Source: Squalus acanthias
Lineage: Eukaryota
Direction: 5' to 3'
NCBI GenBank assembly: GCA_030390025.1
Contig: CM059432.1
Location: 20,214,001 to 20,278,000, forward strand
Length of the DNA: 64,000 nucleotides
Below, one piece after another: positions 2,430-51,429 of the stretch. The notes beneath the pieces were generated by a model. It was not told the DNA's origin. It was given only the letters and a program-made list of their open reading frames with translations, and did not search any database. Each line of letters begins with the position of its first letter. Positions within the stretch are counted from its first letter, which is position 1. The position numbers and the translations under genes are program-made.

Positions 2430-4522
2430 ACATAGATACATAGAAGATAGGAGCAGGAGTAGGCCATCCGGCCCTTCGAGCCTGCTCCGCCATTTAATGA
2501 GATCATGGCTGATCCTCCAATTCAGTATCCCATCCCCGCCTTCTCTCCGTAACCCTTAACCCCTTTCGCCTGTAGAAATATATCTAATTCCCTCTTAAAT
2601 ATATTTAATGAGCTGGCGTACACTGCCCTCTGTGGCAATGAGTTCCACAGGTTCACCACCCTCTGAGTGAAGAAATTCCCCCTCATTTTTGTCCTAAATG
2701 GTTTAGCCCTTATCCTTAAATTATGTCCTCTAGTTCTGTTCTCACCCGCCAAGGGAAACATTCCTTCTGCATCTAGTCTGTCTAGACCTGTCAGAATTTT
2801 ATACACTTCTATGAGGTCCCCTCTCAATCTTCTAAACTCCAGTGTGTACATCCCTAAACTACATAGTCTCTCCTCATAGGTCAATCCCGCCATTCCTGGT
2901 ATCAGCCTGGTGAATCGCCGCTGCACCCCCTCCATGGCAAGAACATCTTTCCTCAGATGAGGCGACCAAAACTGTACACAGTACTCGAGGTGTGGTCTCA
3001 CCAGTGCCCTGTACAGCTGCAGCAAGGTATCCCTGTTCCTGTATTCCAACCCTTTTGCATGAAGGCCAGCATACCGTTTGCCTTCTTGACCGCCTGATGC
3101 ACCTGCATGCTCGCCTTCAGTGACTGGTGTACAAGAACACCCAGGTCTCTCTGTACTTCCCCCTCTCCCAATTTATTGCCATTTAAATAATAATTTGCCC
3201 TCCCGTTCCTGCACCCAAGGTGGATAACTTCGCACTTGTCCACATTATAGTGCATCTGCCATTTATCCGCCCAATCACCCAGTCTGTCCAAATCGCTCTG
3301 GAGCTTCCTGGTCTCCTCCTCTGAGCCCACCCCCCCTCCTAGTTTAGTGTCGTCTGCAAATTTGGAAATGCTGCATCCAACTCCCTGATCCAGGTCATTA
3401 ATGTAAATTGTGAACAGCTGGGGACCCAGGACAGATCCCTGTGGTACCCCACTTGTTACTGCCTGCCATTCAGAAAATGAGCCGTTTATTCCAACTCTCT
3501 GTTTTCTATCTGACAGCCAGTTCTCTATCCACGTCAATACTTTCCCCTTTATCCCATGAGCTTCAATTTTCCATGCTAATCTTTTATGTGGGACCTTATC
3601 GAAGGCCTTTTGGAAGTCCAGGTACACCACATCTACTGGCTCTCCCCCATCTATTTTACCAGTTACTCCCTCAAAAAATTCCAATAGATTAGTCAAGCAC
3701 GATTTACCCTTTGTAAATCCATGTTGACTCTGTCCTATCCTGTCCCCATTTGCTAAGTGCTCCGCTATTTCATCCTTAATGATGGACTCCAGCATTTTGC
3801 CCACAACTGATGTAAGGCTTACAGGTCTGTAATTACCTGCTTTTTCCCTACCCCCCTTTTTGAATAGTGGGGTAACGTTAGCTACCCTCCAATCCATGGG
3901 CACTGTTCCCGAGTCTAATGAATTCTGAAAAATCATACTTAGTGCATCCGCTATCTCTAGGGCCACCTCCTTCAGTACCCTAGGATGCATGTTATCAGGC
4001 CCTGGGGATTTGTCCGCCTTCAATCCCTTTAGCTTCCTTAACACCATATCCTTAGAGATATTGATTTGCGTCAGTTCCTCCTTTGCCAATGTCCCTATTT
4101 TTCCCGATATCCCAGGGAGGTTTTTTGTGTCTTCCTTCGTAAAGACTGACCCAAAGTATGCATTTAGTTGGTCTGCCATTACCTTATTTCCCGTTATATA
4201 TTCCCCCGTATCTGACTGCAATGGACCAACTTTGGTTTTCACCAGTCTTTTCCTCTTGATATACTTATAAAAGCTTTTGGAGTTAGTTTTTATATTTTCC
4301 GCCAGCTTGCTTTCGTAAGCTATTTTGCCCCTCTTGATTAAGCCCTTTGTCCTCCTTTGCTCTATCTTAAACTGTTCCCAATCTTCCGTTCTGGCGCTTT
4401 TTTTGGCTATTTTATACGCCCTATCTTTGGATTTTATGCTGTCTCTAATTTCCCCTGTTATCCACGGTTGAGTCACCTTTTTAGATTTCCTTTTATGCCA
4501 GATTGGTATAAACAATTTTTGC
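2430..4522 (-). mobile_element. Young 5'-truncated CR1 LINE with the RT region nearly intact
   Basis: ORFs 2998-4548 and 2522-3049 join through one frameshift; [27 protein letters not shown] and KFADD motifs. Confidence 0.95.
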
Positions 4523-5465
4523 AATTTTGTCATTCTAACAACCATCATATGCCAAGATACCCGTCATATACCTCTATTAATTTTTTGGTCACGTTACATG
4601 CTCCAGCAAGCCATTTCTGACACTGAAAGCCTCCCTGTTAATTTCACAGTTGTTTATACAAACAAAATTATCTATCTCTTAGGTTTGCCATACTGTGTCT
4701 CCAGGCTTCATTAAGACATTTAGTGCCTGTCTATATAAATTCAAATTGTTGTCTGTGTCAGTCCTTTGTCTGAGCATCTCAGTGAGATTTTTGCTTTGCC
4801 AGTGTTCCAATATTAACCCTTTGAGATTTCAGTAGTGTGGTTCAGAGGGCCTCTTCCCTACACCATTCTCATCCAATATTGATATGCTAGTGTAGTAATG
4901 AGGAGTGGGAATACGAGTTGACTTTTTTCCCTCCTAATTTCAGTGGCGCTGAAAATCAAAATCAGCACAAAACCAAGATATTTCCTGTTCTCTACAGCTC
5001 CATGGATATCATCCACTCCCTTGACGGCCAATTCTGTTTTTATTTGAAGTCTTAGGAAGTGATCCAGCTTTGAAATGCAATATAAACTATGCTACAGAAA
5101 AAAAAAACATATGCAAAGTGAAGCGGAATGAAAATGGTATGCTGTTTAGTCAGGAAGCAAATGGTCTGTAGGCTTCACCAGGGCAGGTTTTCAATAAAGC
5201 AAATCAGATCTACATTTACCTCTCCTGCTAGCATGCTGCACTGTGGCTTGAAACAACACAAACCTAATCTGCAGTTACATCACATCACCACTACTGCAGC
5301 AGTTAAAAGTAGCCACAGGTTTTCCATTATTTAATCCATAATTCAATCTATAATTTGGCAATGCTAGTTCAGCGAGCAAGTTTAAGTCTGCACTTAAACT
5401 TCTGTATACAACGGACCGAGACCCAGGTGACTTTATTGTTACCTTTTTACACTTCCTCCTCTCCT

Positions 5466-18633: not shown

Positions 18634-20168
18634 ACATAAGAACATAAGAAATAGGAGCAGGAGTAGGCCATTCGGCCCCTCCAGCCTGCTCCGCCATTTA
18701 ATGAGATCATGGCTGATCCAATTTTGGCCTCAACTCCACTTGGCCTTGACTCCCCTGTTGCTCAAAAATCTGTCTATCTCAGCCTTGAATATATTCAATG
18801 ACTCAGTTTCCACAGCTCTCCGGGGTAAAGAATTCCAAAGATTCACAACCCTCTGAGAGAAGAAATTCCTCCTCATCTCCGTCTTAAATGGGCGACCCCT
18901 TATTCTGAGGCTATGTCCCCTCGTTCTAGATACCTCCATGAGGTGAAACATCCTCTCAGCATCTACCCTGTCCAACCCCTTCAGAATCTTATATGTTTCA
19001 ATAAGATCACCTCTCATTCTTCTAAACTCCAATGAGTATAGGCCCAACCTGTTCAACCTTTCCTCATAAGACAACCCTTCCATCCCAGGAATCAACCTAG
19101 AGAACTTTCTCTGAACTGCCTCCAATGCAAGTACAGGAAACTCTTGTTTAATCGGCACCTAAATATCCGGAATTCTCTCTTAACCGGCAAAAATCATACT
19201 CCGAAAACTCCTCTCAAATAACCGGCAATGTTGCCGAGTCCGAGTCTCCCGCGAACGCCGAGTACTCCGAAAACTCCTCTCAAATAACCGGCAATGTTGC
19301 CGAGTCCAAGTCCGAATCTCCCGCGAACGCAGAGTTAGTCAGTGGGGGTAGTTCTCCAAAGTGCCACTACTCAGCCTCCTGGCGCTGTCGGAAGTCCGAA
19401 CACTGCAGTTTGTTAAAAATAGCCTCGGTAGATATAACTCTCCGTTATCCGGAACTTTTGATCAACCGGCACCACGCCGGGTGCCGGATACCAAAGAGTT
19501 TCCTGTATATCCCTCCTTAAATAAGGGGACCAAATCTGTACACAGTACTCTAGGTGTGGTCTCACCAACGCCCTGTACAGTTGTAGCAAGACTTCCCTAC
19601 TTTTAAAATCTATCCCCTTGAAATAAAGGCCAACATTCCATTTGCCTTGCTAATTACTTGCTGTACCTGCATGTTAACTTTTTGTGTTTCATGTACGAGG
19701 ACACCCAAATCCCTCTGTACCGCCATATTCTGTAGTCTTTTTCCATTTAAATAATATTTTTCTTTTCTATTCTTCCTACCAAAGTGGATAACTTCACATT
19801 TTCCCACATTTTACTCCATTTGCCAAATTCTTGCCCACTCACTTAACCTATCTATATCCCTTTGCAGACTCTTTATGTCCTCCTCACAACTTGCTTTCCC
19901 ACCTATCTTTGTATCATCTGCAAATTTGGCTACAATACACGCGCTTCCTTCATCCAAGTCATTAATATAGATTGAAAATAGTTGAGGCCCCACTAGTTAC
20001 AGATTGCCATCCTGAAAATGACCCATTTATCCCGACTCTCTGTCTTCTGTTAGTTAGCCAATCCTCTATCCAATCTAATATATTACCCCCAACACCATGA
20101 GCTCTTATCTTATGCAGTAACCTTTTACGTGGCACCTTGTCGAATGCCTTTTGGAAATCCAAGTACAC
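18634..20168 (-). mobile_element. CR1 RT and 3' fragment split by the Tigger-type MITE, itself nested in an older plus-strand CR1 (about 18440-18633 and 20169-20280)
   Basis: YLDFQKAFDKV, KFADDTK and FFSQRVVNLWNSLP in minus-strand ORFs. Confidence 0.9.
19134..19505. mobile_element. Tigger/pogo-type MITE inserted in a CR1
   Basis: TIRs caggaaactctt...aagagtttcctg with TA on both sides. Removing it restores the CR1 sequence gcaagTAtatccctcc. Internal ~65-bp tandem duplication (19197-19330). Confidence 0.9.
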
Positions 20169-22321: not shown

Positions 22322-25300
22322 TCTAGGGATAGATACTGTTCTCTGCAGCCGCGACAGGGAGTACCGAAGGTTGTGTTGCCTGCCCGGGTGCCAGGGGTAA
22401 AGACATCACCTCGCGGCTGGAGAAGAACTTGAAGTGGGAAGGGAAAATCCAGTTGTCGTGATCCACGTAGGAACCAACGACATAGGTAGAACTAGGAATG
22501 AGGTTCTGCTGAGAGAATTTGAGGAGTTGGGGTCCAAATTAAAAAGCAGAACCTCAAAGGTAATAATCTCTGGATTGTCACCTGAGCCACTAGCCAATTG
22601 GCATAGGGATAAGCAGAAGGTTAAATGCGTGGCTGAAAGAGTGGTGTGGGAGGCAGGGGTTTCGTTTCATTGGCCACTGGGACTAGTACTGGGGAAAGAG
22701 GGAGCTGTTCCATTGGGACAAGCTCCACTTAAACCGGCCTGGAACCAGTGTCCTGGTGAATCGAATAACTAGGGTAGTAGACAGGGCTTTAAACTAATAA
22801 GGCGGGGGGGGGGAGGAGCGGAGGATTCAGGAAAGAGTAAATTTAAAAGTAGCAAAGGAAAGGTCAAGGCTCTGGAGTAAGCAGAGTGGGTCAGGAAGGG
22901 ACAGAATATCAAAGGTAATAGAGCATCAGTTACCAAGGTGACATCAAGGAAAAATAGAAAGCTAAAGGTACTATGCCGGAATGCACGAAGCATTCACAAC
23001 AAAATAGATGAATTAATAGCACAGGCAGAAATGAATAGGTTTGATCTAATAGCCATTACAGAGACGTGGTTGCAAAGTGACCAAGGTTGGGAACTAAATA
23101 TTCCAGGAGACTTAAATTTTAGAAGGGATAGGCAAAATGGAAAAGGAGGAGGAGTAGCCCTGATAATAAAGGATAGGATAAAAGACAGTAGAGAGAAAGG
23201 ATCTTGACTCAGAAAATCAAGAAGTAGAATCAGTTTGGGTGGAATCAAGAAACAGCAAGGGACAGAAAACATTGGTGGGAGTTGTTTTAGGCCCCCAAAC
23301 AATAGTTGTCATGTAGGGCAGAGTATAAATCAGGAAATTAGAGGTGCATGTAACAAGGGTAATACAGTAATCATGGGGGCCTTTAATCTACATATAGACT
23401 GGGCAAACCAAATTTGCAGTAATAGTGTGGAGGACGAATTCATGGAATCTATACAAGGTAGTTTTCTAGATCAGTACGTTGAGGAACCAACTTGGGAACA
23501 GGCTATTTTAGATCTAGTATTGTGCAATGAGAAAGGGTTAATTACTAACCTTGTAGTAAAGGGGCCTTTAGGGAAGAGTGACCATAATATGATAGAATTT
23601 TACATTGAGTTTGAAAGTGATTTAGTTAAATCCGAAACTAGGGTCTTAAATCTAAACAAAGCAAACTATGTAGGTATGAGAGGCGAGTTGGCCAAGGTAG
23701 ATTGGGAAACTACATTAAAAGTTATGATGGTAGACAAGCAATGGCTAGCATTTAAAGAATTAATACATAATTTACAACAAATATACATTCCTTTAAGGCA
23801 CAAAAACCTCACAGGAAAAGTGGTCCAACCGTGGCTAACAAGGGAAGTTATAGAGAGTATTAGATCAAAGGAAGAGGCTTATAATGCTGCCAAAAAGAGT
23901 AGTAAGCCTGAAGATTGGGAGGATTTTAGAATTCAGCAAAGGAGGACCAAGAAATTGATAAGGAAAGAGAAAAAAAGAATATGAAAGTAAATTAGCAAGA
24001 GACATAAAAACAGATTGTAAATGTTTCTATAGGTCTGTACATAGGAAGAGATTAGTGAAAGTAAACGTGGGCCCATTAGAGGCAGACACAGGAGAAATTA
24101 TAATGGGCAATAAGGAAATGGCAGAACATTAAACAAATACTTTGTATCTGTCTTCACGGTGGAAGACACAAAAAACATTCCAGCAATAATGGGGAACCAA
24201 GGGTCTAGAGAAAATGAGGAACTTAAAGAAATCAGTATAAGTAAAGACAAAGTACTGGAGCAATTAATGGGACTAAGTGGCGACAAATCCCCTGGACCTG
24301 ACGACCTGCATCCTAGGGTTTTAAAAGAGGTAGCTGCAGAGATAGTGGATGCACTGGTATTAATCTTCCAGAATTCCATAGATTCTAGACCAGTCCCCAA
24401 GGATTGGAAGGTAGCAAACATAACCCCGCTATTTAAGAAAGGAGGAGAGAAAAAACTATAGGCCAGTTAGCCTGACATCAGTAGTAGGCAAAATGTTAGA
24501 ATCTATTATTAGGGACGTGATAACAGGGCACTTAGAAAATCATTATATGATTAGGCAGAGTCAACATGCTTTTCTGAAAGGGAAATCGTGTTTGACAAAT
24601 CTGTTAGAGTTTTTTGAAGATGTAACTAATAGGATGGATAAGGGGGAACCAGTGGAAGTAGTGTACTTGGATTTTCAAAAAGCATTCGATAAGGTGCCAG
24701 ACAAGATTAGGACTCATGGGATTGGGGTAATATATTAGCATGGATTGAGGATTGGTTAATGGACAGAAAACAGAGAGTAGGAATACACAGGACTTTTTCG
24801 GGTTGGCAGGCTGTAACTAGTGGGGTACCGCAAGGATCAGTGCTTGGGCCTCAGCTATTTACAATCTATATTAATGACTTAGATGAAGGGACTGAGTGTA
24901 ATGTATCCAAGTTTGCTGATGATCAAAGTCAGGTGGGAAAGTAAGCTGGGAAAGTAAGCTGTGAGGAGGACGCAAAGAGGCTGCAGAGAGATATAGACAG
25001 GTTGACTGAGTGGGCAAGAACATGGAAAATGGAATACAATGTGGGGAAGTGTGAAGTTATCCACTTTGGTAGGAAAAACAAAAAAGCAGAATATTTTTTG
25101 AATGGTGAGAGACTGGGAAATGTTTGCATTCAGAGGCACCTGGGTGTCCTTGTACATGAATCACAGAAAGTTAACATGCAGGCACAGCAAGCAATTATGA
25201 AAGCAAATGGTATGTTAGCTTTTTTTACAAAGGGATCAGCGTAGAAGAGTAAAGAAGTCTTACTACAATTGTACAGGGATTGCTGAAGCCACACCTGGAG

Positions 25301-35117: not shown

Positions 35118-35556
35118 ACCTCAACTCTGACTGCTCGCTGGTGAATGGTTCCCAGGCCTCTGTTAATACCAGCTCCTATAAGGTACATGACAGTGGCATA
35201 TGTCAACTGATTTTTCTCGCCCTCCTCATTATTTTCTGATCTTCGCTTACCCTCTGCTCACCGCCTCCTATAAATGGGATGGGTATGGTTGCCAACTCAC
35301 GTGTGTAGAACGGCACGCACAAAAGTGAATACTTCCCATTCACAGCATGTCAGAGCACAACAATACCATCCGAAACAACAAAGTTCATGTTCAATTATCC
35401 TGAAATGATTTTACACTATTGGGGATTCCAAATATACAGTCACCTACTGCTCTAGTCTTTAATAGTCCCTGGTGACATCCCTGAAAAAACACAGGCCATC
35501 TGCCAGAGATTTAATTTTTGCTTCAAATTTCTATCCTCTCCTAATATGACCCAATT

Positions 35557-36938
35557 GATGACATCAGTCGCAGGGAAAATGCTACAATCTATTATTAAGG
35601 ACGTGGTAACAGGGCACTTAGAAAATAATAATAGGATTGGGCAGAGTCAACACGAACTTATGAAAGGGAAATCGTGTTTGACAAATCTGTTAGAGTTTTT
35701 TGAGGTTGTAACGAGCAGAATAGATAAGCGGGAACCAGTGGATGTGGTGTATTTGGACTTTCAGAAGGCATTCAATAAGGTGCCACACAAGAGGTTATTA
35801 AATTAGGGCTCATGCGATTGGGGGACATATACAAGCATGGATTGAGGATTGGTTAATGGACAGAAAACAGAGAGTAGGAATAAACGGCTCATTTTCGGGT
35901 TGACAGGCTGTAACTAGTGGGGTACTGCAAGGATCAGTGCTTGGACCTCAGCTATTCACAATCTATATCAATGATTTGGATGAGGGGACCAAATGTAATA
36001 TATCCAAGTATGCTGATGATACAAAGCTGGGTGGGAATGTAAGTTGTGAGGAGGATGCGAGGAGGCTTCATGGGGATATAGACAAGCTAAGTGAGTGGGC
36101 AAGAACAAGGCAAATGGAATATAATGTGGAGAAATGTGAAGTTATCCACTTTGGGAGGAAAAATAGAAAAGCAGAGTATTTTTTAAATGGTGAGAGATTG
36201 GGAAATGTTGGTGTTCAGAGGGACCTGGGTGTCCTTGTACACAAAGCACTGAAAGTTAACATCCAGGCACAGCAAGCAATTAGGAAAGCAAATGGTATGT
36301 TGGCCTTTATTACAAGAGGATTTGAGTATAAGATTAAAGACGTCTTACTGCAATTATATAGGGCCCTGGTAAGACCACACCTGGAGTATTGTGTACAGTT
36401 TTGATCTCCTTACCCAAGGAAGGATATACTTGCCATAGAGGGAGTGCAACAAAGGTTCACCAGACTGATTCCTGGAATGGGGGTATTGTCCTATGAGGAG
36501 AGATTCAGTAGACTAGACCTATATTCTCTAGAGTTTCAAAGAATGAGAGGTGATCTCATTGAAACATACAAAATTCTTACAGGGCTTGACAGGGTAGATG
36601 CAGGGAGGATGTTTCCCCTGGCTGGGGAGTCTTGAACCAGGGGTCACAGTCTCAGAATAAGGGGTCGGCCATTTAGGACTGAGATGAGAAGAAATTTCTT
36701 CACTCAGAGGGTGGTGAATCTTTGGAATTCTCTACCCCAGAGGGCTGTGGAGGCTCAGTCGTTGAGTATATTCAAGACAGAGATCGATAGATTTTTGGAT
36801 ATTAAGGGAATCAAGGGATATGGGGATAGTGCAGGAAAGTGGAGATGAAGTAGAAGATCAGCCATGATCTTATTGAATGGCGGAGCAGACTCGAGGGGCC
36901 GAATGGCCTACTCCTGCTCCTATTTCTTATGTTCTTAT
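35557..36938 (+). mobile_element. CR1 RT and 3' fragment
   Basis: ORFs 35546-36635 with RT motifs; cttatgtt tail. Confidence 0.92.
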
Positions 36939-38149: not shown

Positions 38150-39065
38150 AGATTGATTACCTATCTCTGTAGGGTCACCTTCATTCTTCAAACCGTGCGC
38201 ATCCTCCACATACCATAGGAATATGGCCTAGTTTGACAGGATCTGTGCAAACTATGTACTGAGCGCACACAGAAGTGTCATCATGGCATTGCAGTCAAGA
38301 AACGGGACACAAGGTTTGCTATGCCCATGCTGTATATAGCTCCAGTATCTGTGCCATTGTGCGAGTTCATTTTGATCGGAGGCTAAACTAAAACTGAATA
38401 CACAACACTAACCCCCGGCCCCCAAAAGTAAAATCCATCAGGGTCTGTGAAAACAAATGGTTGGGATTGTGGTCCGTGGAGGAAGAAGAATGAAGAAAAC
38501 CCCGTAAAGTCGGTAATGTCTCTTTACTCTCTTGTCAGAATTTACATCAGAACCAGGATAGCTTCATCAGCAAAGTTCTGAGTACTGCTGGGACCTCTGA
38601 ACTTCAGGGTCCCTGTTTAAAGCGAATGTCTTTTGCGAGACCAATAGATACCTCTTTGAAAGGTTTGGGAGTAACCCTGGTAATTATAGGCCGGTTAGTC
38701 TTACTTCGGTGGTTGGTAAGATAATGGAAAAGGTCCTGAGGGATAGGATTTATGACCATTTGGAAAGGGGCAACTTAATCAGGGATAGTCAACACGGATT
38801 CGTGAAGGGTAAGTCTTGCCTAACAAATTTGATTGAATTCTTTGAGGAGGTAACTAAGTGTGTAGATGAAGGTAGAGCAGTTGATGTCGTATACATGGAT
38901 GTTAGTAAGGCGTTTGATAAGGTTCATCATGGTCGTCTCATGAAGAAAGTAAGGAGTTGTGGGATAGAGGGAAATTTGGCCGATTGGATAAGTAACTGGC
39001 TATCTCATAGAAAAAAATGAGAAGTCGCACAACACCAGGTTATAGTCCAGCAGATTTATTTAATT

Positions 39066-39103
39066 TTACAAGCTTTCGGAGCTATCGCTCCTTCGTCAGG
39101 TAA
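39066..39103 (-). ncRNA. Minimal hammerhead ribozyme (left arm of palindrome)
   Basis: Reverse complement reads ttacctgacgaaggagcgatagctccgaaagcttgtaa. Confidence 0.82.
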
Positions 39104-39112
39104 GTTGCTAAC

Positions 39113-39150
39113 TTACCTGACGAAGGAGCGATAGCTCCGAAAGCTTGTAA
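39113..39150 (+). ncRNA. Minimal hammerhead ribozyme (right arm of palindrome)
   Basis: ttacctgacgaaggagcgatagctccgaaagcttgtaa; core intact, stem II loop GAUA. Confidence 0.82.
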
Positions 39151-40711
39151 AATTAAATAAATCTGCTGGACTATAACCTGGTGTTGTGCGACTTCTCATT
39201 TTTGTCCACCCCAGTCCAACGCCGGCATCTCCACATCAGTATCTCATAGAAGGCAGAGGGTGGTGGTGGATGGAACATTTTCGGACTGGAGACCAGTTAC
39301 CAGCGGTGTGCCACAGGGGTCGGTGCTGGGTCCTCTGCTGTTTGTGATTTTTATCAATGACTTGGAGGAGGGGACTGAAGGGTGGATCAGTAAATTTGCT
39401 GATGACACCAAGATTGGTGGAGTAGTGGATGAGGTGGAGGGCAGTTGTAGGCTGCAAAGAGACATTGATAGGATGCAGAGCTGGGCCGAAAAATGGCAGA
39501 TGGAATTTAACCCTGATAAGCGCGAGGTGATTCATTTTGGTAGGGCAAATTTGAATAAGGATTACAGGGTCAACGGCAGGGTTCTGAGGAACGTGGAGGA
39601 GCAGAGGGATCTGGGGGTTCATATCCACAGATCTCTGAAAGTTGCCACTCAAGTGGATAGAGCAGTAAAGAAGGCCTATGGTGTGTTGGCGTTTATTAAC
39701 AGAGGGTTTGAGTTTAAGAACCGTGAGGTTATGCTGCAACTGTACAGGACCTTGGTGAGACCACATTTGGAATATTGTGTGCAGTTCTGGTCACCTCACT
39801 ATAGGAAGGACGTGGAAGCATTGGAAAGAGTGCAAAGGAGATTTACCAGGATGCTGCCTGGTTTGGGGGGGGAGGTCTTATGAGGAAAGATTGAGGGAGT
39901 TGGGGCTTTTCTCTTTAGAGCGGAGGAGGATGAGAGGCGACTTAACAGAGGTTTATAAGATGATGAGGGGGATAGATAGAGTGGATGTTCAGAGACTATT
40001 TCCTCGGGTAGAGGCAGCTGTTACAAGGGGGCATAACTATAAGGTGCATGGGGGGAGATATAGAAGGGATGTCCGAGGTAGATTCTTTACTCAGAGAGTG
40101 GTTGGGGTGTGGAATGGACTGCCTGCTGTGATAGTGGAGTCGGACACTTTAGGAACTTTCAAGCGGTTATTGGATAAGCACATGGAGCACACCAGAGTGA
40201 TAGGGAGTGTGATAGCTTGATCTTGGTCTCGGACAATGCTCGGCACAACATCGAGGGCCGAAGGGCCTGTACTGTGCTGTACTCTTCTATGTTCTATGTT
40301 CTAACCCACTCTTGATTGGGCGTTATCATACAATCTAAAGCATGCGGCTTCTCTTTGCTTTTGTATGCTTGGCCTAAGAAGGCCACCTAGTATGATCTTT
40401 TGTGGAGGTTTATAAGCAACTGGTGTTAACATCTGCCGGAAAACCAAAAAACTGCAAAAATTCAAATAAGCTGAATAAATTAAATTATTAGAATGTTTGA
40501 TACTCTAGTGTGTGACTAATTTAAGCTACTCCTGTAGAGAAGTTGAGTGACTTTGTCACAAGCATTTAACGAGACACCCAATGTGAAGAGCAAAGTGCCT
40601 CTAGGTCGGAAAAATCAAATTGCCGCAATCGTGTACGTCCTGACCTTTCACACAATGTGACTGCAGAAGGCAGCACATGCAGCACTGCCTCGACAGTTAC
40701 AGAATGTTTAT

Positions 40712-45579: not shown

Positions 45580-48455
45580 AATGATAGAATGGTTGCAGCA
45601 CAGGAGGCCGCCATTTGGCCCGTCGAGCCCATGCCGGCTCTCTGGAAGAGCACTTCAGCTAGTCCCACTCCCCTGCCCTTTCCCCGTAGCCCTGCAAATT
45701 TTTTTCCTACAGGTACTTATCCGATTCTCTTTTGAAAGCCACGATTGAATCGGCCTCCACCACCCTTTCAGGCAGTGCATTCCAGATCCTAACCACTCGC
45801 TGCATAATAAGGTTTTTCCACATGTCGCTCTTCGTTCTGCCAATCACCTTTAATCTGTGTCTCTGGTTCTCGACCCTTCTGCCAATGGGAACAGTTTCGC
45901 TCTATCTACTCTATCGAGACCCTCATGATTTTGAACACCTCTATCAATTTCTCTGCTCCCCACACTCACTCCAACCTACCTCCCTCTGAACTTGCAGCAC
46001 TCCATTCTCTCAGATCCAACCCCAACATTGTCTTGAAACCTGCTGACAAGGATGGTGCTGTTGTTGTTTGGTGAACCGACCTCTACCTAGCGGAAGCTGA
46101 ACGCCAACTCTCCGACACCTCCTCCTACCTCCACCTGGACCATGACCCCACTACCGAACATCAAGCCACCGTTTACAAGACTGTCACTGACCTCATCTCC
46201 TCTGGAGATCTTCCCCCCACGGCCGCCAACCTCATAGTTCCCCAACCCCGCACAGCCCGCTTCTACCTCCTTCCCAAGATCCACAAACAGGACTGCCCTG
46301 GTAGACCCATCGTTTCAGCCTGTTCTTGCCCCACCGAACTTATCTCTTCCTATCTCGACTCTATTTTTTCTGCCCTTGTCCAGTCTCTTCCCACCTACAT
46401 CCGGGACTCTTCCGACGCCCTCCGCCACTTTAACAGTTTCCAGTTTCCTGGCCCCAACCGCCTCCTTTTCACTATGGACGTACAATCCCTCTACACTTCC
46501 ATTCCCCACCAGGATGGCCTGAGGGCGCTCCGCTTCTTCCTTGAACAGAGGCCCAACCAGTCCCCATCCACCACCACCCTCCTCCGCCTGGCTGAACTTG
46601 TTCTCACATTGAACAACTTCTCCTTTGACTGCACTCACTTCTTCCAAATTAAAGGTGTTGCTATGGGAACCCGCATGGGTCCTAGCTATGCCTGCCTTTC
46701 CGTGGGATATGTGGAACATTCTTTGTTCCAGTCCTACTCAGGTCCCCTCCCTCACCTCTTTTTCCGGTACATTGATGACTGTATCGGTACCGTTTCCTGC
46801 TCTCGCCCTGAACTGGAAAATTTCATTCACTTTGCTTCCAATTTCCACCCTTCCCTCACCTTCACATGGTCCATCTCCGACTCTTCCCTTCCCTTTCTCG
46901 ACTTCTCCGTCTCCATCTCTGGGGATAGGTTATTGACAAACATTCACTGCAAGCCCACTGACTCCCACAGCTACCTGGACTACACTTCCTCCCACCCCGC
47001 TTCCTGTAAGGACTCTATTCCATTCTCCCAGTTTCTCCGTCTCCGCCGCATCTGCTCTGACGATGCCACCTTCCATACCAGTGCTTCCGACATGTCTTCC
47101 TTTTTCCTCAACCGAGGATACCCCTCTACTGTGGTTGACACGGCCCTTGACCGTGTCCATTCTATCTCCCGCACTTCTGCTCTCACCCCTGCCCCTCCCT
47201 CCCGGAACCACGATAGAGTTCTCCTTGTCCTCACCTTTTACCCCAAAAGCCTCCACATTCAACGGATCACCCTCCACCATTTCCGCCACCTCCAGCGTGA
47301 TCCTACCACCAAACACATCTTCCCCTCACCTCCCCTTTCAGCATTCCGAAGGGACCGCTCCCTCCGCGACACCCTGGTCCACTCCTCTATCACCCCCAAC
47401 ATCTCTTCCCCTTCACCCGGCACCTTCCCGTGCAAGCGCAGGAGATGCAACACATGCCCTTCTACCTCTCCCCTTCCCACTGTCCAGGGCCCCAAACACT
47501 TCTTCCAGGTGAAACAGCGATTTACTTGTACTTCTTGCAATTTAGTATACTGTGTATTCGCTGCTCACGATGCGGTCTCCTCTACATTGGGGAGACCAAA
47601 CGCAGATTGGGTGACCGCTTTGCGAAACACCTCCATTCAGTCCGTAAGGGTGACCCCGAGCTTCCGGTCACCTGTTACTTTAATTCTTCGCACCACTCCC
47701 ACTCAGACCTCACCGTCCTCGGCCTCTTACATTGTTCCACTGAAGCTCAATGTAAGCTCGAGGAACAGCACCTCATCTTTCGATTAGGCACTTTACCGCC
47801 TTCTGGACTCAACATAGAGTTCAACAATTTCAGATCATAACCTCGGCCCCTATCATATATATATTTTTTTCCACACTTTTGTTTGTGTTTTCTTTTCTTC
47901 TCCCCCACATGGCAGCTGTCTTTCATTCTGCCAGCGCAATTTACACTTCATCTAGAGCTTTTTTTTGTTTCTTAACCTGTCCCATTATTATCTCCTTTTG
48001 CCTTGAATATCTCTTAATGTCTCTTACCTCTCCTGCCTTCTATCCTATCATAGACCTTCCCTTTTGTTCTTTCACCCCCTCCCCACTTTCCCAGCTCCTA
48101 CACTTGCTTAAAAATCTGTTCCATTTCCTGCTTTTTTGCAGTTCTGACAAAAGTTCATCGACCTGAAACGTTAACTCCGTTTCTCTCTTCACAGATGCTG
48201 CCTGACCTGCTGAGTATTTCCAGCATTTTCTGTTTTTATTCCTGTCAACCTTCTCTGCTCTATGGAGAACAACCCCAGCTTCTCCAGTCTATCCACGTAA
48301 CTGAAGTCCCTCATCCCTGGAACCATTCTGGTAAATCCTTTCTGCACCCTCTCGAAGGCCTTCACATCCTTCCTAAAGTGTGGTGCCCAGAATTGGACAC
48401 AATACTCCAGTTGAGGCCGAATCAGGGTTTTATAAAGGCTCATCATAACTTCCTT
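45580..48455 (-). mobile_element. CR1 3' fragment in two pieces (45580-45948, 48243-48455) split by the Penelope element
   Basis: LIRPQLEYCVQFWAP..LEKLGLFS resumes on the other side of the insertion. Confidence 0.85.
45949..48240 (+). mobile_element. Penelope-like element, second family (RT + GIY-YIG + pLTR), decayed, inserted in a CR1
   Basis: ORF 46474-47787 has MDVQSLYTSIP, GVAMGTRMGPSYA and FRYIDD RT motifs. Frameshifted CIRCSRCGLLYIGETKRRLGDRF..H endonuclease. Degenerate hammerhead at 48140-48176. Confidence 0.92.
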
Positions 48456-49908
48456 GGGAAAGTTCCAGGTTTGAATCCTGGTCTGTACTGAGTTAGTTAA
48501 TCTCAGCAGGGGCTCTGCAACTGGCTTCAGTACTCCTAGGCTCTGATCTTTCAGGGTTCCTTTCCAGAATGACTATTCAATGACCCCAATGAGACAGTGC
48601 ATTCATTATCTAGGCTCACACATGATGAATGGCCACCTATGTAAGCTGTGGTAGGGCCTGGCATCCATGGCATTAGAAGCTGAAGGATAAAAAAAAAAGG
48701 AGGGAAGAATACTTTTAGCTCATTGCCAATTACGGTGTCTATTTGTACCTTGTTTTAATGCTGATTTCAGAGAAGTTTTACAAGGGCCTAGCAAGTGGGA
48801 GACTGGTCCCTCAGTGCACACTACTTTCACAGTATAAAGATAAAATTTGTCCCTCGGTATTGTAACTAATAACGTGTGAAGAACAGGGTGAAATAGGTGG
48901 AGGCACATTCTCCGGTAGAACATGGCTAATGAGCCACAAAATAGCTTTTCATACCAGTAAGTATTTAATTAATTGAACACAATGGGACTCAAAGTGTTAT
49001 CCAATCTCTTATATGTAACTGAAATTAAAAACAACTGCCAGGATAGTTTATCAAGAAGACTGTAAACAGACTTATTCCCAGAATCCTCATTCTTACTCCA
49101 CTTAAGGCACTTGCATACTTTCTCCAGGTTTTCGAGAACAATGCTAAGCGTACCGTGTGTCCCCTCCACCATGTTTCTATACTATTCTGTGCCTCCATTC
49201 TCCTGCGGACTCATTGGAGACCAATTAGGAAAATTACCACATGCTCTCCTGTATATGACAAAGCCCCTTCCAACAGGCCAAACAGAGAGCAGAGGAATGA
49301 GACACTAAATTGCTTTTCCATCTAAAAAAGAGTGCCGAAGGGAACACTTGCTGAGCCGGTCACGATGCAGTTTTAAATCAGGAAGCCAATGCCCTGATGC
49401 TCTGAGTCAATTTGTGCATTTTGAAAATCTAAGGATAGAGGTCAGATTTCTGATAGCTGGTCCAAAATGGGTTTCCATTGCCATGGACCAAATGGACACT
49501 AATAAGTTCATGTTCTGCAGTGCCGTTAACTTCACAAGATCCATGCATCGGCAGTCTATGGCAAATCAGCAATGTAAAAGCACGTTTGTATTACAGTCCT
49601 GCCTGTGGAAACATTACAGCACTATAAATGAGGCAATGTACATGGTTCTGGGGGCAAGCAACAGCACCTCACGCGCGTTGACAATACACGCAGCAAGATT
49701 ACATGATCGCTGATGCTCGTCATCAACAACATCATTTTGTCCTGGTCACATATGGGCTGAGATCTCAAGCCACTTTTCTCATTGCTGGCCTGTACGTGGG
49801 GGAGAGGGTGTGGGTGGGGGGGGGGGTGAAAGATGCTTGTGGGGGGGGGGGGGGGGGGGGCGGGTCTTCCCCTGACTTCAGGGATCTTCCACAGTTCAAT
49901 TTGTAAGA

Positions 49909-50369
49909 CAGGAAACTCTTTATTAACCGGCACCCAAATATCCGGAAATCTCTCTTAACCGGCAAAATTCTTGAGTAGGTAACCGGGGTTTTCCTTCATC
50001 TCTCTACACTAGATCGTAGCATTATATGGGCCAAGTCTTTGCTGAATGCTCGCTGTAAGATCTGTCACAAGAAGGGAGATGCAGAAAACATGCTGTTGTG
50101 TGATGGCTGTGATCGAGGGCACCACACACACTGTTTGAGACCAAAGGTTAAGGTTTGTACATAGTACTTTTTAAATCAAAAAAAGCTGGCTACTCAAAAG
50201 AAAATTCTTTAATGTGACCGGGGTTCCTGCACCTGTGGCCGTGCACCAGGGACTCCTGGATCTGTGGCCATGTACGGGGCTCTCGTACCTTGGTAGATAT
50301 AACTCTCCGTTATCTGGAATTTTTGATAAACCGGCACCACGCCGGTCCCGGTTAATAAAGAGTTTCCTG
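49909..50369. mobile_element. Tigger/pogo-type (Tc1/mariner) non-autonomous element with BAZ1A cargo
   Basis: Perfect 22-bp TIRs caggaaactctttattaaccgg / ccggttaataaagagtttcctg; TA on the right flank, GA on the left; ends shared with 19134-19505. Confidence 0.88.
49988..50152 (+). pseudogene. BAZ1A: Captured partial exon of BAZ1A/ACF1 (N-terminal part of the PHD finger), followed by a GT donor and probable intron sequence
   Basis: 55 open codons VFLHLSTLDRSIIWAKSLLNARCKICHKKGDAENMLLCDGCDRGHHTHCLRPKVK then gtttgt. Closely matches remembered BAZ1A (VFLHLSTLDRSVIWSKSILNARCKICRKKGDAENMVLCDGCDRGHHTYCVRPKLK). In-frame TAG upstream (49976-49978); no other BAZ1A exons seen; lies between TIRs. Confidence 0.9.
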
Positions 50370-51429
50370 TATTGTGAGTCAACTTTGGAACAATAGCTCA
50401 AAATCCATGACATCTGAATCGTATGCACACACTTTTTTCCAATACTTCTGATCTCTCTATCCACTTTCTGGTATAAATGGGGAAAATTCAGAATAGTTAG
50501 CTGCATAATATTGAGGAACCACTTTTGCTTCAGTTCCACATTATAAATGGGATATTAGAACACTGCTCTTACCATTGCTGTTGGTCTGTATTATAAAGTG
50601 AATGTCCCCTGTCCATCTCCTTATTATGTCTGGAAACAGCAGGCATGCGATGACTAGGGATATCAACTTCATTTTCATGCTGTAAAGCAATCAATGTATG
50701 TATATTGTATTGAACCAAGCTAACAGCCAGGGAAAAGTCCCTCCCGAACAGAACCAGATTGTAGGATTGTGAGTGTGAGCAGCCCCTACCTTTTCAATTC
50801 CTCCCTCCATCATTGTCCGCAATGTTATTCCGCACTGGTTCCTCTGACAAGGTTCAAAGGACAACATCAACTGCAAGAGTGAAGTTCATGCGCTTTACCA
50901 ATATTATCTGAAGCCTGAGCTGCATTCCTGAAAAACCTATCTGCAGAAAAGTTCAGAGAGGTGCCGTCACACTTCAGTGTCAAAAATATATTAAAAAGAG
51001 AAAGACTGGCAGTCATTTCACGATTAGTTCACAAGATAACTATGGATGGGGAAGGTCATTTGACCCATCTTAGTTTATCCATTCAGAAAAAAACAAATTG
51101 CAACATCTGATTGTTTCTTAATAATTCCAGGGTTCTTGTCTCCACTACTCTATCTGGTAGTCAAGTACTGATCACTTTTTGTGTGAAGAACTTATTATTG
51201 ATAACAATCCTGAAGTTGCTTCAGACCAGTTTGAATCCGTGACCTCTTGTCCAAGACTTGCAATTTTGGCTCAGTAATTTTCTGGATTTATCTTTAAACT
51301 GGATGGTTGCTGTGGACGTGAAAGAGGTTCCACAGCAATTACAGCAAAACCTTAAGGCGTACCAGTGAAAATATAAATCAAAGTATAAGAAGTCCAAATC
51401 CAATGGTGGCCAGAAAAGAAATTAAAAAT

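Follow-up and report, generated by a model that had tools for sequence, protein, structure and literature searches.

A multicopy pogo/Tigger-like MITE carrying a fragment of the BAZ1A PHD-finger exon in a shark genome

Introduction

The Pack-MULEs of rice and maize carry gene fragments between their terminal inverted repeats (TIRs) and are mobilised in trans, the fragments being often non-functional. They belong to the Mutator superfamily, with target-site duplications of 9–10 bp and long TIRs. The shark element described here shares their mode of capture and differs from them by its TA duplication and its TIRs of 22 bp. It is also similar to the Pack-MITEs of grapevine (Benjak et al. 2009, PMC2817404) and the Pack-Mariner elements of rice (Gisby and Catoni 2022, PMC8903248), which the accessible text of these reports presents as short, non-autonomous elements whose exon fragments have been transduplicated and amplified. 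Subfamilies with further rounds of capture are described in both systems; copy numbers are 2–12 per gene-capturing subfamily in grapevine (Table 2 of PMC2817404) and mostly low in rice (PMC8903248). As far as the same text goes, these are plant elements, mostly of the PIF, hAT or CACTA type, whereas the shark element is a vertebrate pogo-type transposon with more than 100 copies.

In plants, cut-and-paste transposons are well known to capture genes, whereas the animal cases are almost only single-copy and transposition-free. In the available part of a survey of 100 animal genomes (Tan et al. 2021, Nat Commun, PMC8277862), 370 Pack-TIRs are reported, 115 of them TcMariner elements, and a single-copy Pack-Tigger1 is described in gibbon. 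Only 4 of the 370 are multicopy, and the one described has three copies. According to that text, most Pack-TIRs arose without transposition, near their parent; the multicopy cases sit at a distance from it, and template switching with subsequent transposition is given as their explanation. The shark element resembles these metazoan Pack-TIRs in being a TIR transposon with a duplicated host fragment of known parent and with microhomology at the breakpoints. In contrast to those in the accessible text, it has 138 copies of the exon core and a parent on another contig, and its genome also contains an empty progenitor and an abundant partner whose reading frames are open. The initial annotation of this locus regarded host-fragment capture as little described for vertebrate Tc1/mariner elements; given the 115 TcMariner cases among animals, this is only partly right, and it is the amplification that is unusual (PMC8277862).

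Two further MITEs offer partial parallels. MER6 (Luchetti et al. 2019, PMC6887750), a Tc1/mariner MITE of mammals with a SINE V domain inside, is like the shark element in being a vertebrate Tc1/mariner-type MITE that took foreign sequence to many copies in a burst. As presented in the available text, however, the cargo of MER6 is part of a repeat and its family is ancient and inactive, whereas the shark cargo is a host coding exon with intron. DTC84 of the clam Donax (PMC3879986) is a MITE containing tandem repeats, comparable to the shark progenitor, whose core consists of 58-bp repeats in variable number; the accessible portion of that report mentions no host-gene capture, in contrast to the shark element. 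In a literature search that lay mostly outside the subscription journals, neither a BAZ1A-carrying transposon nor a shark Pack element was found. The kind of element is thus already known (Pack-TIR, Pack-MITE), and it is the amplification that is exceptional for animal gene capture by a DNA transposon.

Here we describe the shark element, its parent gene and its relatives in the genome. With a probability of about 0.9, we consider it a Pack-type MITE, i.e. a non-autonomous pogo/Tigger-like transposon that gained host DNA and then multiplied.

Results

Structure of the element in the window

The window, that is, the whole 64-kb stretch of DNA that was analysed, contains at positions 49909–50369 a MITE of 461 bp with perfect 22-nt TIRs at its ends. 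In the assembly it lies at C8:20263909–20264369. The TIR, CAGGAAACTCTTTATTAACCGG, is found at 49909–49930 on the plus strand and at 50348–50369 on the minus strand with 0 mismatches, as the initial annotation had described. Such repeats are not expected by chance, as 100 shuffles gave 0 matches, and the inverted repeat reaches 30 nt at 93% identity. The same annotation had placed the insertion at a TA site. Inspection of the flanks agreed with this on the right, where the target-site duplication TA is present (50370–50371), and not on the left, where the window copy has GA (49907–49908), a mutated form of the duplication that is TA in other copies.

The left end of the MITE (49909–49967, plus strand) is shared with an autonomous pogo/Tigger-like element over 59 nt at 91.5% identity (blastn against the autonomous copy in L068). 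It is followed by a remnant of backbone up to the capture junction (49968–49986, plus strand), where alignment shows that about 92 nt present in the 539–564-bp subfamily are deleted. The stretch derived from BAZ1A occupies 49987–50219 and consists of an exon-derived piece (49987–50152, plus strand) and an intron-derived piece (50153–50219, plus strand). The latter opens with the native GT donor and has a 19-nt deletion relative to the native intron after about position 50185. At 50217–50287 (plus strand) the sequence is again backbone, a derivative of the 58-bp tandem repeat found in the progenitor MITE; it opens with the 7-bp sequence ACCGGGG, a copy of which flanks the captured piece on either side. 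The right end common to the autonomous element (50288–50369, plus strand) closes the MITE; it is alignable over 82–91 nt at 85–94% identity, and its TIR is identical to that of the autonomous element. This amends the interior layout proposed initially: BAZ1A sequence accounts for 49987–50219, and the remainder of the interior is backbone. No transposase is encoded within the 461 bp, the sole long frame being the 61-aa BAZ1A piece.

Several other features of the window are worth recording. Runs of G (about 9 and 23 nt) lie at 49815–49860, some 50–90 nt upstream of the insertion. The long open reading frames (ORFs) of the window, at 3001–4563 (minus strand) and at 23208–23981, 35456–36401, 38601–39880 and 46075–47784 (plus strand), are remnants of LINE reverse transcriptase/endonuclease. 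The initial annotation had proposed TSNARE1, on the other strand, as the local gene; Pfam searches with the 60 longest of the 192 window ORFs of at least 75 aa returned LINE domains only and no SNARE-type domain.

The captured sequence and its native locus

Positions 49988–50152 form 165 nt, i.e. 55 codons (VFLHLSTLDRS...CLRPKVK), free of stops and frameshifts. The encoded peptide is identical at 54 of 56 positions (96%) to residues 1226–1281 of a shark BAZ1A protein of 1663 aa (P0003). When it was used in a protein homology search, 350 of the 352 candidates scored at E≤0.001, and the best of the 120 matches listed were chondrichthyan BAZ1A proteins at 91–96% identity, with mammalian BAZ1A at about 85%. 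Pfam recognised a PHD finger in the captured piece (E=1.6e-8) over profile positions 1–32 of 47, with six of the eight zinc ligands (Cys4-His-Cys3). GT at 50153–50154 is followed by 64–67 nt of AT-rich sequence matching the native BAZ1A intron. A tblastn search of the 64-kb window with the complete 1663-aa BAZ1A gave this single match and no other BAZ1A exon. On all these points (the open BAZ1A segment, its six ligands, the donor with intron-like DNA and the lack of a further BAZ1A exon in 64 kb) the initial reading of the sequence proved correct. The window copy has a private A at 50011 and a private C at 50129, the latter changing Tyr to His; at both positions the native letter is present in every other aligned copy and in contigs from three public runs.

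We searched for the parent in the element's own assembly (3.7 Gb, 3882 contigs), the query being the stretch of BAZ1A that immediately precedes the captured residues. The native BAZ1A gene was found on contig C1 at about 64.81 Mb, on the minus strand. Its exon is 248 nt long and the intron that follows is 98 nt long; the next exon encodes IIPDDDWFCPEC with the last two zinc ligands (CPEC), which lie outside the capture. Element positions 79–311 (window 49987–50219) are identical to native exon plus intron at 229 of 233 positions outside the one 19-nt gap (E=4e-104). A 543-bp copy can be aligned with the native gene over 252 nt without gaps at 99.2% identity, and at most one fixed base distinguishes the captured part from its parent over these 252 nt. 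The captured part begins within the exon, of which it has the last 165 nt, and continues through the donor into 83–86 of the 98 intron nt, its right limit falling 12–15 nt short of the native 3′ splice site. The element was annotated as carrying a captured BAZ1A exon; it does carry BAZ1A PHD-finger sequence, which is part of the exon and not the whole of it.

About 15 kb of native BAZ1A sequence, made up of the 6 kb surrounding the exon and further pieces (L031–L033), were searched for the family TIR, and none was detected. For this reason capture in cis, by local gap filling at the parent locus, was not adopted as an explanation.

Copies in the genome

The whole genome was searched for short diagnostic patterns with up to 2 mismatches, and reversed-pattern controls all gave 0 matches. 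A 29-mer from the PHD-coding core was found at 139 places, the native gene and 138 copies. The pattern joining a backbone repeat unit to the BAZ1A 5′ end was matched at 51 places, and a junction made by a 117-nt internal deletion at 138. By far the most abundant was the junction of the window lineage, in which backbone with the 92-nt deletion is joined to the first 14 BAZ1A nt (3938 places). A search with the full element gave at least 40 scored full-length matches at 95–100% identity among 2291 first-look candidates.

For the study of complete copies we sampled 71 loci, from which 7 incomplete copies and 11 with shared flanks were dropped, leaving 53 unique complete PHD-bearing copies. TA/TA duplications are present in 50 of these 53, and the flanks are unrelated. 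Copies diverge from the majority sequence of their own subfamily by 0.5–1.2%, which is a lower bound, for the sampled copies were picked by best score or perfect core, and both divergence and frame intactness are biased toward young, well-preserved copies.

Some copies have been swept into tandem or segmental duplications after their insertion. At C2:171729755–171748812 (6 copies) and C1153:410961–422319 (4 copies), the Pack-MITE recurs with a period of about 3.7 kb; seven copies lie within 85 kb at C13:32287489–32372878; and three copies on C1626 (L022, L026, L027) have identical flanks. Because of such arrays and duplicated blocks, the 138 copies are not all independent insertions. In addition, public runs labelled with five coded organisms contain at least half of the sampled words of the element; the family extends beyond one labelled organism. 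Among the runs listed as containing the element, none is recorded as RNA.

An isolated exon-like sequence remote from its gene might in theory also represent a pseudogene or retrocopy of BAZ1A, a segmental duplication, or a chimera introduced by the assembly. The native intron sequence that follows the exon piece excludes a retrocopy or processed pseudogene. Against the group as a whole stand the single BAZ1A match in 64 kb and the identical TIR-bounded units that are found, with TA duplications and between unrelated flanks, at 138 places. Finally, the exon-intron piece and its 19-nt deletion recur in contigs from three independent public runs (pieces spanning 50123–50223). We give this whole group of explanations practically no weight. 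Both expectations raised by the initial annotation, a native BAZ1A locus matching exon and downstream intron and TIR-flanked copies at unrelated TA sites, were borne out by the genome search, and its proposal of DNA-level capture followed by transpositional amplification is supported by the parent locus, the 138 copies and the TA duplications.

An autonomous pogo/Tigger-like partner

A search of the genome with the Pfam DDE_1 profile gave 150 scored matches among 1582 candidates, of which 147 had no internal stop. Thirty of these loci were fetched, and in 23 of them TIR-like matches (up to 4 mismatches) were found on both sides, 2.5–2.8 kb apart. The five autonomous elements that were inspected all measure 2.58–2.76 kb and are flanked by TA/TA duplications. 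The 588-aa ORF of one genomic copy contains the Pfam domains CENP-B_N (1e-16), HTH_Tnp_Tc5 (3.8e-15) and DDE_1 (6.2e-57). As a lead only, the nearest named Atlas clusters of this transposase are 'Jerky protein homolog-like' and 'Tigger transposable element-derived protein'. TA duplications and the ends of an element encoding CENP-B-type HTH and DDE_1 domains place the MITE in the pogo superfamily (IS630-Tc1-mariner group), so that the pogo/Tigger assignment made from the sequence alone holds at the superfamily level.

Open frames in this family (L047–L076, 150 DDE_1 places) reach 686 aa, and many are of 605–608 aa. This very abundant autonomous family, whose DDE_1 domains are full, may still be active. 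The window itself harbours a second MITE of the same pogo family at 19134–19505 (plus strand), flanked by TA, with an internal direct repeat of about 60 nt and no BAZ1A piece. Its ends are closer to those of the autonomous element than are the ends of the Pack-MITE, and it is a plain deletion derivative of the autonomous family.

PHD and other domains are sometimes found fused to transposases, and the BAZ1A exon could conversely have been derived from a transposon by domestication. The autonomous element, however, has no BAZ1A-like sequence, since blastn shows that it shares only its two ends with the MITE. Moreover, the 55 residues are conserved in the BAZ1A of mammals and of cartilaginous fishes to the extent given above, always within the full BAZ1A domain set, and the 6 kb around the native exon are free of the family TIR. 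We see hardly any chance that the transfer went in this direction.

Empty progenitor, subfamilies and junctions

Complete copies span 460–564 bp. The window copy is a member of a young 461-bp subfamily, whereas the 539–564-bp group retains the 19 intron nt missing from the window copy and about 92 nt more of the left backbone. On both sides of the BAZ1A piece, the backbone is made of the 58-bp repeat. Uninterrupted junctions between repeat units were found at 535 places genome-wide, often exactly 58 bp apart; no similarity between the repeat and the autonomous element was detected. At C5:159502813–159503369, at least 10 repeat-junction matches are spaced by 58 or 116 bp, with one larger gap.

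A 302-bp MITE flanked by TA/TA (L117) corresponds to the element without its cargo. Along its whole length it can be aligned collinearly with the 543/563-bp copies, from which only the BAZ1A piece and the 7-bp ACCGGGG duplication set it apart, although in principle such an empty MITE could also come from a deletion between the two ACCGGGG repeats. The empty junction predicted from the window subfamily had 0 matches in the genome, because this subfamily has lost 92 nt of its backbone.

Short microhomologies between backbone and gene are found at both junctions: GG on the left (GGTT in the other repeat variant) and ATGT on the right. Such microhomologies are a signature expected of template switching and point to a mechanism of this type, with re-entry 7 nt upstream of the point of departure.

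Several derived types were recognised. The 481-bp type has an 11-nt duplication inside the coding piece, and the 364-bp type the 117-nt deletion. A 9-nt indel near the right TIR is found in derivatives and is polymorphic among autonomous copies too. In elements of 811–903 bp, an unrelated insert of about 650 bp takes the place of 46 nt of the BAZ1A piece. The six elements of this type that were read (L034, L037, L038, L043, L044, L045) all contain three BAZ1A pieces of 18, 35 and 19 nt in native order. The insert gave no match to the autonomous element or to BAZ1A and has no long ORF; it may represent a second capture. Deletion derivatives of these insert-bearing elements may in turn make up most of the 3938-place class. 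One further place of that class that was read, the 300-nt L118, has only the first 16–18 BAZ1A nt together with parts of the insert. From the very few members read, the class would consist of degraded descendants of the capture.

The short-stub elements, in which TTTTCCTTCATCTCTC comes after AACCGGGG and which stop at the first 16–18 BAZ1A nt, might instead be an older family, a chance homology to the exon having then guided the switch. This would agree with the numbers (3938 places for their junction versus 139 for the PHD core and 138 for the 117-nt-deletion junction) and with the lack of any other BAZ1A piece in L118; by our estimate, a MITE could conceivably match a 3.7-Gb genome over 18 nt by chance. 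Nevertheless, the AACCGGGG/TTTTCC junction of the 543/563-bp copies runs on unbroken into 250 nt of BAZ1A, and the collinear empty MITE is devoid of TTTTCCTTCATCTCTC. The 811–903-bp elements, with their three pieces in native order in six of six cases, link the two groups, and L118 itself shares parts of the insert with these intermediates. An older short-stub family is accordingly quite unlikely in our judgement, and we favour a descent of the short-stub elements from the capture.

Coding capacity of the captured piece

The 55-codon frame is open in 20 of the 53 unique complete copies; the coding piece of the other 33 contains an indel, in most cases the 11-nt duplication. Relative to the native codons, the 53 copies together show 2 stops as well as about 8 synonymous and 36 non-synonymous changes. 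All 30 aligned copies have kept the native 5′ splice site, AAG/GTTTGT.

Some function of the captured piece could be imagined: exonisation via the captured donor, small RNAs against BAZ1A produced by two-way read-through, or expression of a half-PHD peptide. The retained 5′ splice site, with which exonisation or read-through effects are possible, and the frames that have stayed open are in line with such a role. On the other hand, the frequency of frameshifts and the ratio of non-synonymous to synonymous changes, together with the stops, are those of a sequence under no purifying selection. The piece itself lacks a start codon and two of the eight zinc ligands, the native 3′ splice site of the exon lies outside the capture, and no high-identity chimera of the peptide with a non-BAZ1A protein appears among the 120 database proteins listed. 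A functional cargo therefore seems to us very doubtful. Given the frameshifts, the non-synonymous excess and the missing start codon, exon acceptor and two ligands, the captured PHD half is treated as a passenger; with no coding constraint detectable in the copies, it looks like a neutral one.

Discussion

All the features by which Pack-TIRs and Pack-MITEs are recognised are found in the shark element, i.e. TIRs with a target-site duplication, a host parent, presence at many loci, an empty relative and the lack of a transposase of its own. The following course of events would explain its structure. The starting point would have been a progenitor MITE of about 300 bp with a core of 58-bp tandem repeats. 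During repair or replication, synthesis would have jumped from a repeat unit to BAZ1A at the microhomology GG(TT), and about 250 nt would have been copied, from the last 165 nt of the PHD-finger exon through the splice donor to 83–86 nt of the 98-nt intron. A return switch at the microhomology ATGT, landing 7 nt upstream of the point of departure, would then have created the ACCGGGG duplication on both sides. The resulting chimera retained both MITE ends, so that the transposase of the autonomous family could mobilise it, and this transposase would have moved it in trans to new TA sites. Later on, descendants would have gained the 92-, 19- and 117-nt deletions, the 11-nt duplication and further insertions. 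This order of the subfamilies is a proposal to which age gives no support: the 539–564-bp group, at 1.0% from its own majority, is not clearly older than the other subfamilies.

A bolder reading goes beyond the Pack-type MITE that we favour. The family might represent a still-active exon-shuffling system of vertebrates, in which a pogo transposase with numerous open copies in the genome continues to move a genuine 5′ splice site and half of a chromatin-reader domain into genes. Some copies would be exonised, or would yield sense/antisense RNA leading to small-RNA silencing of BAZ1A, and the backbone, its core of 58-bp repeats being prone to template switches, may have captured more host DNA, as the insert of about 650 bp could illustrate. 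We regard this scenario as unlikely, if worth keeping in mind.

With a divergence of about 1% or less, a single genome holds the parent gene, the empty progenitor, founder-like copies, more than 100 daughters and a partner with open frames, and possibly thousands of degraded descendants as well. Because all these players occur together, the transposition-dependent route of gene capture is directly testable in a vertebrate. The family is also a natural experiment on the response of a host to many dispersed copies of one of its own exons with its splice donor. In practical terms, false BAZ1A-like or PHD exons will arise from these copies when genes are predicted in this and related genomes.
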